64,000 nt of DNA from Escherichia coli. Lineage in GTDB: Bacteria > Pseudomonadota > Gammaproteobacteria > Enterobacterales > Enterobacteriaceae. Positions within the stretch are counted from its first letter, which is position 1; each line of letters begins with the position of its first letter. The stretch lies in the NCBI RefSeq assembly GCF_048403405.1, contig NZ_CP183129.1; one strand, given 5' to 3'. Made by a program: the position numbers and the translations under genes. The notes beneath the pieces are model-generated. The model did no database searches and was not told the DNA's origin. It saw nothing but the letters and a program-made list of their open reading frames with translations. Shown here piece by piece: positions 4,609 to 50,583 of the stretch.

Positions 4609-5433
4609 ATGGAACAGAGAAAAATTACACGCAGCGATCTGGTGAGCATGTTTCTGCGCTCCAACCTGCAACAGGCGTCCTTTAACTTTGAACGTATTCA
4701 CGGGCTGGGTTTTTGCTACGACATGATCCCCGCCATCAAGCGACTTTACCCATTAAAAGAGGATCAGGTTGCGGCGCTCAGGCGACACCTGGTGTTCTTC
4801 AATACCACGCCAGCCGTATGTGGCCCGGTCATCGGCGTCACTGCCGCCATGGAAGAGGCGCGGGCCAACGGCGCGGAAATTGATGACGGTACCATTAACG
4901 GCATCAAAGTCGGTCTGATGGGACCATTGGCAGGAGTTGGCGATCCACTGGTCTGGGGAACGCTGCGCCCGATTACCGCCGCGCTCGGCGCATCTCTGGC
5001 ACTTTCGGGCAACATTCTCGGCCCGCTGCTGTTTTTCTTTATTTTCAATGCGGTGCGTCTGGCGATGAAGTGGTATGGCCTACAGCTCGGCTTTCGCAAA
5101 GGGGTGAATATCGTCAGCGATATGGGCGGGAATGTGCTGCAAAAACTCACCGAAGGCGCGTCGATTCTCGGACTGTTTGTGATGGGCGTGCTGGTGACCA
5201 AATGGACGTCAATCAACGTACCGTTGGTGGTTTCACAAACGCATGCCGCCGATGGCTCCACCGTCACCATGACCGTGCAGAACATTCTCGACCAACTTTG
5301 CCCTGGTTTGCTGGCGCTCGGTCTGACGCTACTGATGGTTCGTCTGCTCAACAAAAAAATTAACCCGGTATGGCTGATTTTCGCCCTGTTTGGCTTAGGG
5401 ATTATCGGCAATGCGCTGGGCTTCCTGTCCTGA
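4609..5433 (+). CDS. sorM: PTS mannose/sorbose-family EIID membrane component
   Basis: Track ORF 4579-5433; start taken at ATG 4609 (MEQRKITRSDLVSMFLRSNLQQASFNFERIHGLGF, ManZ-like N-terminus) with GGAG RBS. Confidence 0.75.
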   Translation: MEQRKITRSDLVSMFLRSNLQQASFNFERIHGLGFCYDMIPAIKRLYPLKEDQVAALRRHLVFFNTTPAVCGPVIGVTAAMEEARANGAEIDDGTINGIKVGLMGPLAGVGDPLVWGTLRPITAALGASLALSGNILGPLLFFFIFNAVRLAMKWYGLQLGFRKGVNIVSDMGGNVLQKLTEGASILGLFVMGVLVTKWTSINVPLVVSQTHAADGSTVTMTVQNILDQLCPGLLALGLTLLMVRLLNKKINPVWLIFALFGLGIIGNALGFLS

Positions 5434-5484
5434 TTCTTCGCCCCGGCACGACTGCCGGGGCCATCGCTCAACATGAGGTGGTTT

Positions 5485-6714
5485 ATGAAAACAACAGCTC
5501 TGCGTCTTTATGGTAAACGTGATTTACGCCTGGAAACCTTTGATCTTCCTGAAATGCAGGAGGATGAAATCCTCGCGACGGTGGTCACCGACAGCCTGTG
5601 CCTCTCTTCCTGGAAAGAGGCCAATCTGGGTGAAAATCATAAAAAAGTACCCGACGATGTGGCGACCAACCCCATCATCATCGGCCACGAGTTTTGCGGC
5701 GATATTCTGGCCGTGGGTAAAAAGTGGCAGCACAAATTCCAGCCGGGTCAGCGTTATGTGATTCAGGCCAACCTGCAACTCCCCGACCGCCCGGACTGCC
5801 CCGGCTACTCCTTCCCGTGGGTAGGCGGCGAAGCGACGCATGTGGTTATTCCCAACGAGGTCATGGAACAAGATTGCCTGCTGGCATACGACGGCGAAAC
5901 CTATTTTGAAGGCTCGCTGGTTGAACCGCTTTCCTGCGTGATTGGCGCGTTCAACGCCAACTATCATCTTCAGGAAGGTAGTTATAACCACACGATGGGG
6001 ATTCGCCCGCAAGGGCGCACGCTGATCCTCGGCGGCACCGGACCAATGGGACTGTTGGCGATTGATTATGCGTTGCATGGACCGGTTAACCCGTCGCTGC
6101 TCGTCATTACCGATACCGACAACGACAAATTGAGTTATGCGCGCAAGCACTATCCATCAGAACCGCAAACACTGATTCATTATCTCAATGCCGCCGATGC
6201 AGCATTTGATACGTTAATGGCACTGAGTGGCGGTCACGGCTTCGATGATATTTTCGTCTTTGTGCCTAATGAAGGACTGGTGACTCTCGCCTCTTCCTTG
6301 CTGGCGACAGATGGTTGCCTGAATTTCTTCGCCGGACCGCAGGATAAACATTTCAGCGCGCCAATTAATTTCTACGATGTGCATTATGCATTTACCCACT
6401 ACGTGGGCACGTCAGGCGGCAATACCGATGACATGCGCGCAGCAGTCAAATTGATTGAAGAGAAAAAAGTGCAGGCCGCAAAAGTGGTAACACATATTCT
6501 TGGGCTGAATGCCGCGGGCGAAACCACGCTTGAATTGCCTGCCGTCGGCGGCGGCAAAAAGCTGGTGTATACCGGGAAATACCTGCCGCTTATGTCACTC
6601 ACGCAGATTCAGGATCAAGCACTGGCGGCAATTCTGGCGCGTCATCAGGGGATCTGGTCCGGTGAGGCGGAGCAATATCTGCTCACTCATGCAGAGGCAA
6701 TTTCCCATGATTAA
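5485..6714 (+). CDS. sorE: Zinc-dependent alcohol dehydrogenase-family enzyme, sorbose-1-phosphate reductase-like
   Basis: Track ORF 5473-6714; start taken at ATG 5485 (MKTTALRLYGKRDLRLE) after GAGGTGG RBS. MDR/zinc-ADH family, last gene of the sor cluster. Confidence 0.7.
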   Translation: MKTTALRLYGKRDLRLETFDLPEMQEDEILATVVTDSLCLSSWKEANLGENHKKVPDDVATNPIIIGHEFCGDILAVGKKWQHKFQPGQRYVIQANLQLPDRPDCPGYSFPWVGGEATHVVIPNEVMEQDCLLAYDGETYFEGSLVEPLSCVIGAFNANYHLQEGSYNHTMGIRPQGRTLILGGTGPMGLLAIDYALHGPVNPSLLVITDTDNDKLSYARKHYPSEPQTLIHYLNAADAAFDTLMALSGGHGFDDIFVFVPNEGLVTLASSLLATDGCLNFFAGPQDKHFSAPINFYDVHYAFTHYVGTSGGNTDDMRAAVKLIEEKKVQAAKVVTHILGLNAAGETTLELPAVGGGKKLVYTGKYLPLMSLTQIQDQALAAILARHQGIWSGEAEQYLLTHAEAISHD

Positions 6715-14749: not shown

Positions 14750-18659
<3,910 letters not shown>

Positions 18660-22988: not shown

Positions 22989-23432
22989 ATGGTTATTAGT
23001 ATTCGCCGCTCACGGCATGAGGAAGGGGAGGAACTGGTTGAGATTTGGTGCCGTTCTGTCGATGCCACTCACGATTTTTTATCAGCAGAGTATCGGGCCG
23101 AGCTGGAAGAGCTGGTGCGTTCCTTCCTGCCGGAAGCGCCGTTGTGGGTCGCGGTTAATGAGCGGGATCGGCCGGTTGGGTTTATGTTGTTAAGTGGGCA
23201 GCATATGGATGCGCTGTTTATCGATCCTGATGTGCGCGGCTGCGGCGTGGGTCGGATGCTGGTGAAGCATGCGCTCTCAATGGCCCCGGAACTGACAACC
23301 AATGTTAATGAGCAAAATGAGCAGGCGGTTGGGTTCTATAAGAAGGTGGGTTTTAAGGTTACGGGACGCTCTGAGGTGGACGATTTGGGGAAACCGTATC
23401 CATTGCTGAATCTGGCGTATGTGGGGGAATAA
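22989..23432 (+). CDS. yjaB: GNAT-family N-acetyltransferase
   Basis: 147 aa with acetyl-CoA-binding motif (RGCGVGRMLVKHAL). Confidence 0.85.
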   Translation: MVISIRRSRHEEGEELVEIWCRSVDATHDFLSAEYRAELEELVRSFLPEAPLWVAVNERDRPVGFMLLSGQHMDALFIDPDVRGCGVGRMLVKHALSMAPELTTNVNEQNEQAVGFYKKVGFKVTGRSEVDDLGKPYPLLNLAYVGE

Positions 23433-23504
23433 GCTGCCCCTGCCGTGCCTGCCCAGGCTGGAGAAGACGCGCCAGCGTCGCACCCGGCATTTTTTTCACC
23501 AACG

Positions 23505-23535
23505 CAAAAAGGCCATCCTGACGGATGGCCTTTCG
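23505..23535 (-). terminator. rRNA operon terminator downstream of 5S
   Basis: Minus-strand hairpin GGCCATCCGTCAGGATGGCC followed by TTTTTGCGTT. Confidence 0.7.
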
Positions 23536-23544
23536 CTTAATTTG

Positions 23545-44217: not shown

Positions 44218-44988
44218 ATGTTACGTATTGCGGACAAAACGTTTGATTCACATCTGTTTACCGGCACCGGGAAATTCGCCTCATCACAACTGATGGTGGA
44301 GTCTATTCGCGCTTCCGGCAGCCAACTGGTGACGCTGGCGATGAAACGTGTCGACTTGCGCCAGCACAACGACGCTATCCTCGAACCGCTTATCGCGGCG
44401 GGTGTGACCCTGCTACCGAATACATCCGGGGCGAAAACAGCGGAAGAAGCCATTTTCGCCGCCCATCTGGCTCGTGAAGCGTTAGGCACAAACTGGTTAA
44501 AATTAGAGATTCACCCTGACGCCCGCTGGCTGTTGCCCGATCCCATCGAAACTCTGAAAGCCGCCGAAACGCTGGTACAACAGGGATTTGTCGTGCTGCC
44601 TTACTGCGGGGCCGATCCGGTATTGTGTAAACGTCTGGAAGAAGTCGGCTGTGCAGCGGTGATGCCGCTCGGCGCGCCGATTGGCTCGAATCAGGGACTG
44701 GAAACCCGTGCCATGCTGGAGATTATTATCCAGCAAGCCACGGTTCCGGTGGTTGTCGATGCTGGCATCGGCGTTCCCAGCCATGCCGCGCAGGCGCTGG
44801 AAATGGGGGCCGACGCGGTGTTAGTGAATACGGCGATTGCCGTCGCGGACGATCCCGTCAACATGGCGAAGGCATTTCGTCTGGCAGTAAAAGCAGGCCT
44901 GCTGGCTCGTCAGTCCGGACCGGGCAGCCGCAGTCATTTTGCTCATGCCACCAGCCCGCTGACTGGATTTCTGGAGGCATCGGCATGA
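44218..44988 (+). CDS. thiG: Thiazole synthase
   Basis: 256 aa from ATG 44218 ([44 protein letters not shown]...), immediately after thiS stop. Confidence 0.92.
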
Positions 44989-46118
44989 AAACCTTCAGCG
45001 ATCGCTGGCGACAACTGGACTGGGACGACATCCGCCTGCGTATCAACGGCAAAACGGCTGCTGACGTAGAGCGGGCGCTAAATGCCTCGCAACTCACCCG
45101 CGACGATATGATGGCGCTGTTATCGCCAGCCGCCAGTGGCTATCTGGAACCACTGGCCCAACGGGCGCAGCGTCTGACCCGTCAACGATTTGGCAACACT
45201 GTTAGCTTCTACGTCCCGCTTTATCTTTCCAATCTTTGCGCTAACGACTGCACGTACTGCGGATTCTCTATGAGCAACCGCATCAAGCGCAAAACGCTGG
45301 ATGAAGCGGATATTGCCAGGGAAAGCGCCGCTATACGGGAGATGGGCTTTGAACATCTGCTTTTAGTCACTGGTGAACATCAGGCGAAAGTGGGGATGGA
45401 TTACTTTCGTCGTCATCTCCCTGCCCTGCGTGAACAGTTCTCTTCACTACAGATGGAAGTACAGCCGCTGGCGGAGACGGAATACGCCGAGTTAAAGCAA
45501 CTTGGTCTGGATGGCGTGATGGTTTATCAGGAGACATATCACGAGGCGACTTATGCCCGCCATCATCTGAAAGGCAAAAAACAGGACTTCTTCTGGCGGC
45601 TGGAAACGCCGGATCGGCTGGGCCGTGCGGGGATTGATAAGATAGGCCTCGGCGCGCTAATTGGCCTTTCCGACAGCTGGCGCGTTGACTGCTATATGGT
45701 TGCAGAACATTTGCTATGGCTGCAACAGCATTACTGGCAAAGCCGCTACTCTGTCTCCTTCCCACGCCTGCGTCCATGTACTGGCGGCATTGAGCCTGCG
45801 TCGATTATGGATGAACGCCAGTTAGTGCAAACCATCTGCGCCTTCCGGCTGCTTGCACCGGAGATTGAACTGTCACTCTCCACGCGGGAATCACCGTGGT
45901 TTCGCGATCGCGTGATTCCGCTGGCAATTAATAACGTCAGCGCTTTTTCGAAAACGCAGCCAGGTGGCTATGCCGACAATCACCCCGAGCTGGAACAGTT
46001 CTCACCGCACGACGATCGCAGACCGGAAGCGGTTGCTGCCGCGTTAACTGCTCAGGGTTTGCAGCCGGTATGGAAAGACTGGGACAGCTATCTGGGACGC
46101 GCCTCGCAAAGGCCATGA
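44985..46118 (+). CDS. thiH: 2-iminoacetate synthase (radical SAM tyrosine lyase)
   Basis: 377 aa with [10 protein letters not shown] radical-SAM motif; overlaps thiG stop by 4 bp. Confidence 0.92.
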
Positions 46119-46310
46119 GACAGAATGTAAGAACGTAAATTTATTCCAAGCCGCTACGGAAGATGAAAAACGCAAGGTTGTTGAAAGCGTTGTGTTTTTT
46201 TATGGTAGTGCCGTCAGCAGGAATGTTGTCCAGGGCGAAAAGCTTCTTCCTCGTTTCGCCCTGCCTTTCTTAATATTTCCCGTGAAGACTTTGCCCTCTG
46301 AATAACTCCC

Positions 46311-46340
46311 ATAAAAAAACCCGCCGAAGCGGGTTTTTAC
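46311..46340. terminator. Bidirectional rho-independent terminator shared by rpoBC (minus) and thiCEFSGH (plus)
   Basis: AAAAAAACCCGCCGAAGCGGGTTTTTACG: GC hairpin flanked by A-run and T-run; 20 bp downstream of rpoC stop. Confidence 0.75.
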
Positions 46341-46359
46341 GTTATTTGCGGATTAACGA

Positions 46360-49300
46360 TTACTCGTTATCAGAACCGCCCAGACCTGCGTTCAGCAGTT
46401 CTGCCAGGCTGGCAGATGCGTCTTCTGCAGTCACCTGCGGTGCAGCCGGAGCTTCACCCGCAGCACGGCGACGCATACGATCCTGGTGGTACGCGTAACC
46501 GGTACCAGCCGGGATCAGACGACCCACGATAACGTTCTCTTTCAGGCCGCGCAGTTCGTCGCGTTTGCCCGCAACGGCTGCTTCGGTCAGCACGCGAGTG
46601 GTCTCCTGGAACGATGCCGCGGAGATGAAGGACTCGGTTGCCAGAGACGCTTTGGTGATACCCAGCAGATCGCGGGAGTAAGTTGCACCCACTTTGCCGT
46701 TCGCTTCCAGTTCGCGGTTTGCGATCTTGACGCGAGAGTATTCAACCTGTTCGCCTTCCAGGAAGTCGGAGCTGCCCGCGTTAACGATGGTAGCTTTACG
46801 CAGCATCTGACGAACGATAACTTCGATGTGTTTATCGTTAATCTTAACGCCCTGCAGACGGTATACGTCCTGTACTTCGTTAACGATGTAACGAGTAACA
46901 GCATGAACACCACGCAGACGCAGAATGTCGTGCGGCGCTTCCGGACCGTCGGAAATTACGTCACCACGTTCTACACGTTCACCTTCGAACACGTTGAGCT
47001 GACGCCATTTCGGAATCATCTCTTCGTACGGATCGCTACCGTCTACCGGGGTGATAACCAGACGACGTTTACCTTTGGTTTCTTTACCGAAGGAAACGAT
47101 ACCGCTGATTTCAGCCAGGATTGCCGGCTCTTTCGGACGACGTGCTTCGAACAGGTCCGCAACGCGCGGCAGACCACCGGTGATGTCCTTGGTACCGCCG
47201 GATTCCTGCGGAATACGCGCCAGGGTGTCACCAGAGCTGATCTGTACGCCATCTTCCAGCTGAACAATCGCTTTACCCGGCAGGAAGTACTGCGCTGGCA
47301 TATCGGTACCCGGGATCAGAACGTCGTTACCCTGAGCATCAACGATTTTCAGTGCCGGACGCAGATCTTTACCACCTGCGGTACGTTCTGCGGAATCCAG
47401 AACCACCAGCGAAGACAGACCGGTCAATTCGTCGGTCTGACGCGTAATGGTCTGACCGTCGATCATGTCAGTAAAGCGTACAAAACCGCTTACTTCGGTG
47501 ATAACCGGCATGGTGTGCGGGTCCCAGTTTGCAACGGTTTCGCCGCCAGCAACCTGTTCGCCATCGCCTTTCGCCAGTACCGCACCGTAAGGTACTTTGT
47601 AGCTTTCTTTGGTACGACCGAATTCGTCGATCAGTTTCAGTTCGGTGTTACGGGAAGTGATAACCAGTTTACCGCTGGAGTTCACAACCGACTTCACGTT
47701 GCTGAGCTTGATGCTACCTTTGTTTTTCACCTGGATGCTGGATTCAGCAGCCGCACGTGATGCCGCACCACCGATATGGAACGTACGCATGGTCAGCTGT
47801 GTACCCGGTTCACCGATGGACTGTGCCGCGATAACACCGATTGCTTCACCTTTATTGATGATGTGGCCACGCGCCAGGTCACGACCGTAGCAGTGCGCAC
47901 ATACACCAAAGTCGGTGTCACAAGATACAACAGAACGTACTTTAACCGCGTCGACAGAGTTCTCTTCCAGCAGGTCACACCACTGTTCGTGCAGCAGCGT
48001 GTTGCGCGGAACGAGGATATCAGCAGTACCCGGCTTCAGAACGTCTTCAGCAGTTACACGACCCAGTACGCGATCGCGCAGCGGCTCTTTAACGTCACCA
48101 CCTTCGATAACCGGAGTCATCATGATACCTTCATGAGTACCACAATCGTCTTCGGTAACCACCAGGTCCTGTGCCACGTCAACCAGACGACGAGTCAGGT
48201 AACCGGAGTTCGCAGTTTTCAGTGCGGTGTCCGCCAGACCTTTACGAGCACCGTGGGTGGAGATGAAGTACTGGAGTACGTTCAGACCTTCACGGAAGTT
48301 CGCGGTGATTGGCGTTTCGATGATGGAGCCATCCGGCTTCGCCATCAGACCACGCATACCAGCAAGCTGACGAATCTGTGCCGCAGAACCACGCGCACCG
48401 GAGTCGGCCATCATGTAGATGCTGTTGAAGGAAACCTGCTTCTCTTCCTGACCGTCACGGTTAATAACGGTTTCAGTTTGCAGGTTATCCATCATCGCTT
48501 TGGATACACGATCGTTCGCCGCAGCCCAGATATCGATAACTTTGTTATAGCGTTCGCCCGCAGTTACCAGACCAGACTGGAACTGCTCCTGAATTTCAGC
48601 AACTTCTGCTTCTGCCTCGGAGATGATTTCGTGTTTCTTCTCCGGGATGACCATGTCATCGATACCAACAGATGCACCAGAACGCGCTGCATAGGCGAAG
48701 CCGGTGTACATGATCTGGTCCGCAAAAATAACGGTCGGTTTCAGACCGAGAATGCGGTAGCAGGTGTTCAGCATTTTGGAGATTGCTTTTTTACCCAGCG
48801 CCTGGTTGACGATGGAGTAAGGCAGACCTTTCGGTACAATCATCCACAGAATGGCACGGCCAACAGTCGTGTCTTTCAGGCTGGTTTTCGCTACTAATTC
48901 ACCGTTAGCATCTTTTTCATACTCGGTGATACGCACTTTAACGCGCGCATGCAGAGAAGCCAGACCAGAGCGATACAGACGTTCTGCTTCTTTCGGGCCA
49001 GTCAGCACCATGCCTTCGCCTTTGGCGTTAACACAGTCACGGGTCATGTAGTACAGACCCAGTACAACGTCCTGAGACGGAACGATGATTGGTTCGCCGT
49101 TCGCCGGGGACAGGATGTTGTTGGTAGACATCATCAGCGCACGCGCTTCCAGCTGGGCTTCCAGCGTCAGCGGTACGTGAACTGCCATCTGGTCACCATC
49201 GAAGTCGGCGTTATATGCCGCACAAACCAGCGGGTGCAGCTGGATAGCTTTACCTTCGATCAGTACCGGTTCAAATGCCTGGATACCCAGGCGGTGCAGA

Positions 49301-50583
49301 GTCGGTGCACGGTTCAGCAGTACCGGGTGTTCGCGGATAACTTCGTCCAGGATATCCCAAACGACAGCTTCTTCGCGCTCAACCATTTTCTTCGCAGCTT
49401 TAATGGTGGTAGCAAGACCACGCAGTTCCAGCTTGCCGTAGATGAACGGTTTGAACAGCTCCAGTGCCATTTTCTTCGGCAGACCGCACTGATGCAGACG
49501 CAGGTATGGACCTACGGTGATTACAGAACGACCGGAGTAGTCAACACGCTTACCGAGCAGGTTCTGACGGAAACGACCCTGTTTACCTTTGATCATGTCG
49601 GCCAAAGATTTCAGAGGACGCTTGTTAGAGCCGGTGATCGCACGACCGCGACGACCGTTATCCAACAGGGCGTCAACCGCTTCCTGCAGCATACGTTTTT
49701 CGTTACGTACGATGATGTCCGGCGCAGCCAGATCCAGCAGACGTTTCAGACGGTTGTTACGGTTAATGACGCGACGATACAGATCGTTCAGGTCAGAAGT
49801 CGCGAAACGACCACCATCCAGCGGAACCAGCGGACGCAGATCTGGCGGCAGTACCGGCAGAACGGTCAGGATCATCCACTCTGGTTTGTTACCAGACTGA
49901 ACGAACGCTTCCAGCAGTTTGATACGCTTGGTCAGCTTTTTACGCTTGGTTTCGGAGTTGGTTTCGTTCAGCTCTTCACGCAGCTGCTCGCACTCTTGCT
50001 CCAGATCCATGCTCTTCAGCAGAGCCTGAATTGCTTCCGCACCCATCTTCGCGTCGAATTCGTCACCGAACTCTTCCAGCGCGTCCAGATACTGCTCTTC
50101 AGTCAGGATCTGCTGACGCTCCAGGTTGGTCATACCGCCTTCAATAACCACATAGGATTCAAAGTACAGTACGCGTTCGATATCGCGCAGCGGCATATCG
50201 AGCAGCAGGCCGATACGGGACGGCAGCGATTTCAGGAACCAGATGTGCGCAGTCGGGGAAGCCAGTTCGATGTGGCCCATACGCTCACGGCGTACTTTAG
50301 TCTGGGTCACTTCAACGCCGCACTTCTCACAGATGACGCCACGGTGTTTCAGGCGCTTGTACTTACCGCACAGGCACTCGTAATCTTTTACCGGCCCAAA
50401 GATACGGGCGCAGAAAAGGCCGTCACGTTCTGGTTTGAACGTACGGTAGTTGATGGTTTCCGGCTTTTTAACTTCACCGAAAGACCATGAACGGATCATG
50501 TCTGGCGAAGCCAGAGCAATTTTGATCGCATCAAACTCTTCGGTTTTAGTCTGCGCTTTCAGAAACTTTAATAAATCTTTCAC
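46360..50583 (-). CDS. rpoC: DNA-directed RNA polymerase subunit beta'
   Basis: 1407 aa, [80 protein letters not shown]...; NADFDGD active-site motif present. Confidence 0.98.

Follow-up and report, generated by a model that had tools for sequence, protein, structure and literature searches.

A common short thiH-rpoC spacer in Escherichia coli lacks yjaZ and sroH and probably descends from a longer ancestral form

In the window (i.e., the whole 64-kb stretch of Escherichia coli DNA analysed here), the thi and rpoBC operons converge over a spacer of 241 bp (46119-46359, from the ORF coordinates). thiH, the last gene of the thiCEFSGH operon, lies on the plus strand at 44985-46118 according to the ORF list and the annotation of the near-identical strain CFSAN018748, and its stop at 46118 forms the left edge of the spacer. 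rpoC, an ORF of 1,407 codons supported by the ORF list and annotation, lies on the minus strand at 46360-50583, and its stop forms the right edge. The ORF coordinates 46118 and 46360 confirm the 241-bp spacing between the two stops reported in the initial annotation. Its statement that the spacer holds no ORF also agrees with our results, as only mechanical ORFs of 32-37 aa occur there, and the RefSeq annotation of CFSAN018748, with identical thiH and rpoC gene ends, places nothing in between. The 1,301-bp region from 45600 to 46900 is 100% identical between the window and CFSAN018748, and identity over 50 kb is 96.7-99.7%.

The spacer carries several structured elements. A hairpin followed by a U7 run occupies 46165-46201 on the plus strand, 47-83 nt past the thiH stop, with a folding energy of -14.6 kcal/mol (z = -4.8) that none of 200 shuffled sequences equalled. 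It is kept in all aligned alleles of the spacer, short as in the window or long as in K-12, and may serve the thi operon as an intrinsic terminator, a function predicted from sequence. A second plus-strand hairpin with a 9-bp stem (GGGCGAAA...UUUCGCCC, 46232-46262) belongs to the shared thiH-side flank; it appears in the minimum-energy and centroid folds of both strands and is likewise kept in short and long alleles. The rpoC terminator at 46313-46338 consists of an A7 run, the stem CCCGC, the loop CGAA, the stem GCGGG and a T5 run. The hairpin at 46315-46338 is confirmed: the element was matched by a terminator scan on the plus strand and folds with -15.4 kcal/mol on the plus and -16.5 kcal/mol on the minus strand, so that each direction has a stem-loop with a U run (U5 on the thi side, U7 on the rpoC side). 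Describing this element as a bidirectional terminator was a fair reading of the sequence as far as the hairpin is concerned; that transcription would end here in both directions we infer from symmetry. Over the 52 bp beside rpoC, identity is 99.7-100% to K-12 as well as to the E69 lineage, the outgroup introduced below.

Comparison with K-12 MG1655 (rpoC-yjaZ-sroH-thiH; b3988-b3990, b4691) delimits what is missing. The two loci share their flanking genes and convergent orientation, and thiH itself is 96.8% identical at the nucleotide level (3.2% differing). BLAST aligned window 46119-46280, at 96% identity, with the 162 bp that follow thiH in K-12, and window 46308-46359, which includes the rpoC terminator, with the 52 bp downstream of K-12 rpoC at 99.7%. 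In contrast, the K-12 spacer, from the rpoC end at 4189573 to the thiH stop at 4190735 (NC_000913.3), measures 1,161 bp rather than 241 bp. The difference lies in a junction of 27 bp (46281-46307, BLAST breakpoints) that stands in place of 947 bp of K-12 (NC_000913.3 4189626-4190572). Read from the thiH side, these 947 bp comprise 85 bp, the sRNA gene sroH (4190327-4190487, strand of thiH, 161 nt), yjaZ (4189786-4190325, strand of rpoC, 179 aa) and 160 bp upstream of yjaZ. The initial annotation was accurate in placing a yjaZ of roughly 180 codons downstream of rpoC in K-12 (179 codons), and its absence here is supported by the difference in spacer length and by tblastn with K-12 YjaZ, which returned no homolog in the whole 64-kb window at E ≤ 0.01. 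The account of the lost content was right for yjaZ and incomplete, since sroH, which is missing from the window along with yjaZ, had been overlooked. A covariance-model search for sroH (Rfam RF00372) gave no match in window 45500-47000 even at E ≤ 10; the same model scored sroH at 201 bits in K-12 and at 195 in E69.

The short allele is common and widespread. Counting genomes in which at least 80% of a 120-bp junction probe was covered in one piece, we found the short junction in 1,627 of 5,426 complete E. coli genomes (30%), and carriers include CFT073, 536 and Nissle 1917; the 1,301-bp region is also present as one uninterrupted piece in an ST131 strain. DNA of yjaZ occurs in 3,738 of the 5,426 genomes (69%), and 61 have neither the short junction nor yjaZ DNA. 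These frequencies contradict a strain-specific deletion, one of the two options of the initial annotation, and loss of sroH in phylogroups B2 and D had already been listed (PMC3318445).

A single type of short junction was observed. The window carries the short-allele junction CCGTRAAGAMTTTGCCCTCTGAATAAC with the two stops about 240 bp apart, as do six other short alleles. In an alignment, six short alleles from varied backgrounds have both junctions in common and differ by point changes only, which argues for a single origin of the short allele. Specifically, the spacers of B2-type strains (CFT073, 536, Nissle 1917, ST131) have the junction sequence of the window, a length of 239-241 bp, 95-100% identity to the window over the junction and no annotated gene; where the window reads CTTAATATTTCCCGT and AACTCCC, some other short alleles read CTTAAAAATT-CCGT and AACACCC. 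The spacer allele is also uncoupled from the thiH haplotype, given that one genome combines the short allele with a K-12-like thiH (99.9% identical) and another the long allele with a window-like thiH (99.5% identical). Therefore, homologous recombination has carried the alleles from one lineage to another. In the assembly index, 73,685 blocks contain the exact RpoC protein of the window, which adjoins either allele. Contexts of this exact RpoC were considered as a source of outgroups and dropped, as 10 of 10 proved to be E. coli, with rpoC at least 99.1% identical.

Determining the direction of change required an outgroup. A scan of a species-representative genome collection, in which the last 21 nt of rpoC served as the probe, returned five loci and yielded one usable Escherichia outgroup, a genome titled E. 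coli E69; the region of the E69 lineage was taken from an assembly with an identical YjaZ protein. For thiH, thiG and thiF, dS from the E69 lineage to K-12 or to the window is 0.20-0.33, greater than the 0.08-0.13 between the window and K-12, which places the E69 lineage outside the other two. Its rpoC is 97.4% identical to that of the window, whereas ordinary E. coli are at least 99.1% identical among themselves. We show that the spacer of the E69 lineage likewise measures 1,161 bp and contains yjaZ and sroH within the boundaries seen in K-12. The dS of yjaZ between the E69 lineage and K-12 (0.281) matches that of the adjacent thiH (0.279) and falls within the 0.20-0.32 of the flanking thi genes, indicating that the segment diverged together with its flanks and is no recent arrival. 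With the three arranged as ((window short, K-12 long), E69 long), the short allele comes out as a secondary loss, and loss is favoured over an ancestral empty site. The initial annotation had left open a deletion or the state before insertion; the former is favoured and the latter is not, given the full-length spacer of the outgroup. This polarity rests on one outgroup lineage; the scan yielded neither E. albertii nor E. fergusonii, and the comparison does not extend to named cryptic clades. Several YjaZ relatives were rejected as outgroups: one from E. fergusonii (P0003, 78%) and another (P0008, 70%) lie in plasmid-like contexts that do not adjoin rpoC, and a third (P0005) lies on a short contig without rpoC. 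Three candidates taken for truncated YjaZ relatives (P0012, P0048, P0043) proved to be ordinary E. coli with damaged yjaZ.

The outgroup polarity agrees with the published loss of sroH (PMC3318445). Skippington and Ragan (2012) list sroH, which is equally absent from the window, as lost in B2 and D and also absent from E. coli C ATCC 8739, S. flexneri and S. sonnei 046 (labelled Ec_C_ATCC, Sf and Ss_046), and class its absence as a paraphyletic secondary loss (PMC3318445). In the part of that paper drawn on here, the sRNA gene alone is scored; what the present analysis contributes is the breakpoints, the loss of yjaZ together with sroH, the junction and the dS comparison with the outgroup. In substance, the finding is already known, and the locus is an ordinary one, not a new kind of feature.

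The junction itself offers a supporting line of evidence. Within it, CTTTGCCCTC (46289-46298) is identical to the antisense of yjaZ around codons 34-38, and 7 of 300 shuffles score as high as this local match (p ~0.02). The 27 bp can also be aligned loosely to the right end of the long allele, where 32-69 of 1,000 shuffles score as high (p ~0.03-0.07). Reading the 27 bp as a definite scar of yjaZ was consequently softened, because both the yjaZ match and the rival alignment are marginal in shuffle tests, and the polarity was made to rest on the outgroup, with the scar as supporting evidence only. A further link comes from strain HH45, whose 304-bp spacer has the short-allele left junction CCGTAAAGACTTTGCCCTC, followed by 45 bp matching yjaZ nt 71-115 at 100% identity, about 35 bp and the rpoC terminator. 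In alignment, the short allele equals the HH45 allele minus 62 bp, a structure consistent with stepwise deletion. HH45 is a singleton (1 of 5,426 genomes) with K-12-identical flanks; instead of an intermediate that has survived, it may represent an unusual recombinant of recent date.

The composition and ends of the segment found in K-12 bear on its own origin. Its GC content is 41.5%, against 52% for the window, and imperfect direct repeats of about 20 nt (TTAAAWATTC..AATGC), with several mismatches and indels, stand at both of its ends in K-12 and E69. The K-12 segment consists of yjaZ and sroH only, with no transposase or integrase, and its ends show no clear terminal inverted repeats, only a 6/9 inverted match. 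YjaZ belongs to family PF27200 (precomputed domain hits), whose members are scattered; 559 plasmid records carry one, mostly below 60% aa identity, and an E. fergusonii copy that is 78% identical sits on an 88-kb record, probably a plasmid. No YjaZ homolog was found in the phage collection. The low GC content and the end repeats suggest a horizontal origin of the yjaZ-sroH segment, which would predate the divergence of E. coli from the E69 lineage. On two records of 88-90 kb, probably plasmids (L011 and L014), family members with 70-78% identity to K-12 YjaZ lie in a conserved block preceded by rdgC and four genes without annotation, and the block adjoins a HigB-type toxin-antitoxin pair or UmuDC-like genes.

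Where the segment is kept, its genes appear to be under constraint. yjaZ has a dN/dS of 0.185 between K-12 and the E69 lineage, which speaks for constraint; neutral evolution, considered because aa identity (89%) is lower than nucleotide identity (91%), was dropped once this ratio had been computed. sroH is identical at 159 of 161 positions (98.8%) between K-12 and the E69 lineage (L006 3026-3186), while the non-coding DNA flanking it is 88-89% identical and yjaZ 91%. This is strong conservation for an sRNA that about a third of E. coli are without. SroH is reported to bind kbl mRNA in vitro (PMC6172242), and a sroH deletion mutant is sensitive to envelope stress, according to a report cited in PMC5389530. 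The designation of yjaZ as htrC, a heat-shock gene, has been retracted (PMC11551758). We also observed that yjaZ has been inactivated independently in several other E. coli lineages, by a 156-bp in-frame deletion that begins directly after GAGGGCAAA, next to the short-allele junction site (L023 4504-4887), by a 71-bp deletion in O157:H7 (147 aa; L004 1454-1897), by a 1-nt frameshift (L024 6001-6342) and by an IS5 insertion (L026 1-430).

Taken together, we consider it probable (roughly 0.8) that the ancestral spacer was long, that about 920 bp were deleted once, and that a short allele of single origin was then spread by recombination. The ancestor of E. coli would have had the rpoC terminator, yjaZ, sroH and the thiH-side flank in its spacer; in one lineage, sroH, yjaZ and the promoter region of yjaZ would have gone with the deletion, leaving the 27-bp junction. 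Homologous recombination in the flanking core genes would have carried the short allele, which now makes up about 30% of complete E. coli genomes, between lineages. The thi and rpoBC operons consequently converge over 241 bp that keep the thi-side hairpins and the rpoC terminator, in a window strain presumably without YjaZ and SroH. The geometry, the allele frequencies, the single junction type and the outgroup state are observed, and the mechanism of the deletion and the number of its steps we infer.

That the short spacer is instead an ancestral empty site, into which yjaZ and sroH were inserted later on the way to the K-12, B1 and E strains, is unlikely. The end repeats around the 947-bp segment, its low GC content, the scattered and plasmid-borne PF27200 relatives (including the E. 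fergusonii copy), the loose alignment of the 27 bp to the right end of the long allele, and the different cargo that other genera carry in this spacer would all suit such an insertion. Low GC, end repeats and plasmid-borne relatives fit an old insertion, but one that would predate the split from the E69 lineage, where the long allele has the same boundaries and a yjaZ whose dS equals that of the flanking thi genes. HH45 moreover ties the short junction to yjaZ sequence, the segment is without an integrase or transposase, and a published parsimony analysis infers loss (PMC3318445). A broader reading takes the indel as a long-standing polymorphism kept at intermediate frequency (about 30% short, 69% long) and exchanged among phylogroups by recombination because some niche favours each state, and the spacer as a place that has repeatedly captured cargo from plasmids across Enterobacteriaceae; this strikes us as rather improbable. 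Conservation of sroH at 98.8% against 88-91% in its neighbours, and a dN/dS of 0.19 for yjaZ, count on this reading as signs that both are functional where kept.

Relocation of yjaZ to another part of this strain's genome seems very improbable. The search covered 64 kb of this genome, and 16 genomes do show yjaZ in two places. Against relocation, the window gave no YjaZ match, and in the 5,426 genomes yjaZ DNA occupies a median of one place per genome, always on the chromosome and never on a plasmid; the genomic position of the copies was checked directly at the fetched loci. Among the matches listed, the matched feature is annotated yjaZ/HtrC throughout, the HH45 remnant excepted. The genomes with the short junction and those with yjaZ DNA add up to 5,365, within the 5,426, which is what two sets without overlap would give. 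That the short spacer stems from misassembly or sequencing error is scarcely credible: nothing was found in its favour, the same structure recurs in 1,627 complete genomes that many laboratories have produced, and the 1,301-bp region is fully identical in CFSAN018748.

Loss of a segment of ancestral origin, which remains our preferred reading, makes the locus a tidy case of a small accessory segment whose single loss recombination then spread. The matter is of little consequence. In practice, annotation transferred from K-12 would wrongly predict yjaZ and sroH in about a third of E. coli. The short-allele strains include the main extraintestinal pathogenic lineages, and SroH phenotypes cannot apply to strains from which sroH is missing.

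A similar gap was observed elsewhere in the window. Between the 5S rRNA gene and yjaB, yjaA is absent, and the interval (23428-23537) measures 110 bp against 518 bp in K-12. Like yjaZ and sroH, yjaA, which is used in Clermont phylotyping, is a small K-12 gene missing in part of the species, with a short spacer in its stead; unlike yjaA, the yjaZ/sroH indel is not a typing marker and is uncoupled from its flanking haplotype by recombination. arpA, which is annotated as espL4 in relatives, lies at 14762-16945 and is 97.8% identical to its K-12 counterpart. By these two markers (arpA+ yjaA-), the window is not B2; it fits phylogroup D or some A, B1 and E strains, chuA lying outside the window.

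The rpoC-thiH spacer of other genera was also inspected. In Trabulsiella guamensis (L007 7520-8515), it is about 1 kb long and holds two ORFs of 106 and 131 aa, which by eye look PTS IIA/IIB-like, and no YjaZ, so that the cargo of this spacer differs between genera. In Salmonella enterica subsp. arizonae (L005 3520-4445), the last ~85 nt of rpoC, stop codon included, recur in degenerate form about 920 bp beyond the real stop of the gene and are followed by an AT-rich island, which suggests that an element may have integrated at the 3' end of rpoC. Finally, a sorbose-type PTS IID gene, corresponding to window 4701-5525 in coordinates derived from CFSAN018748, is a pseudogene with an internal stop in the annotation of that strain.
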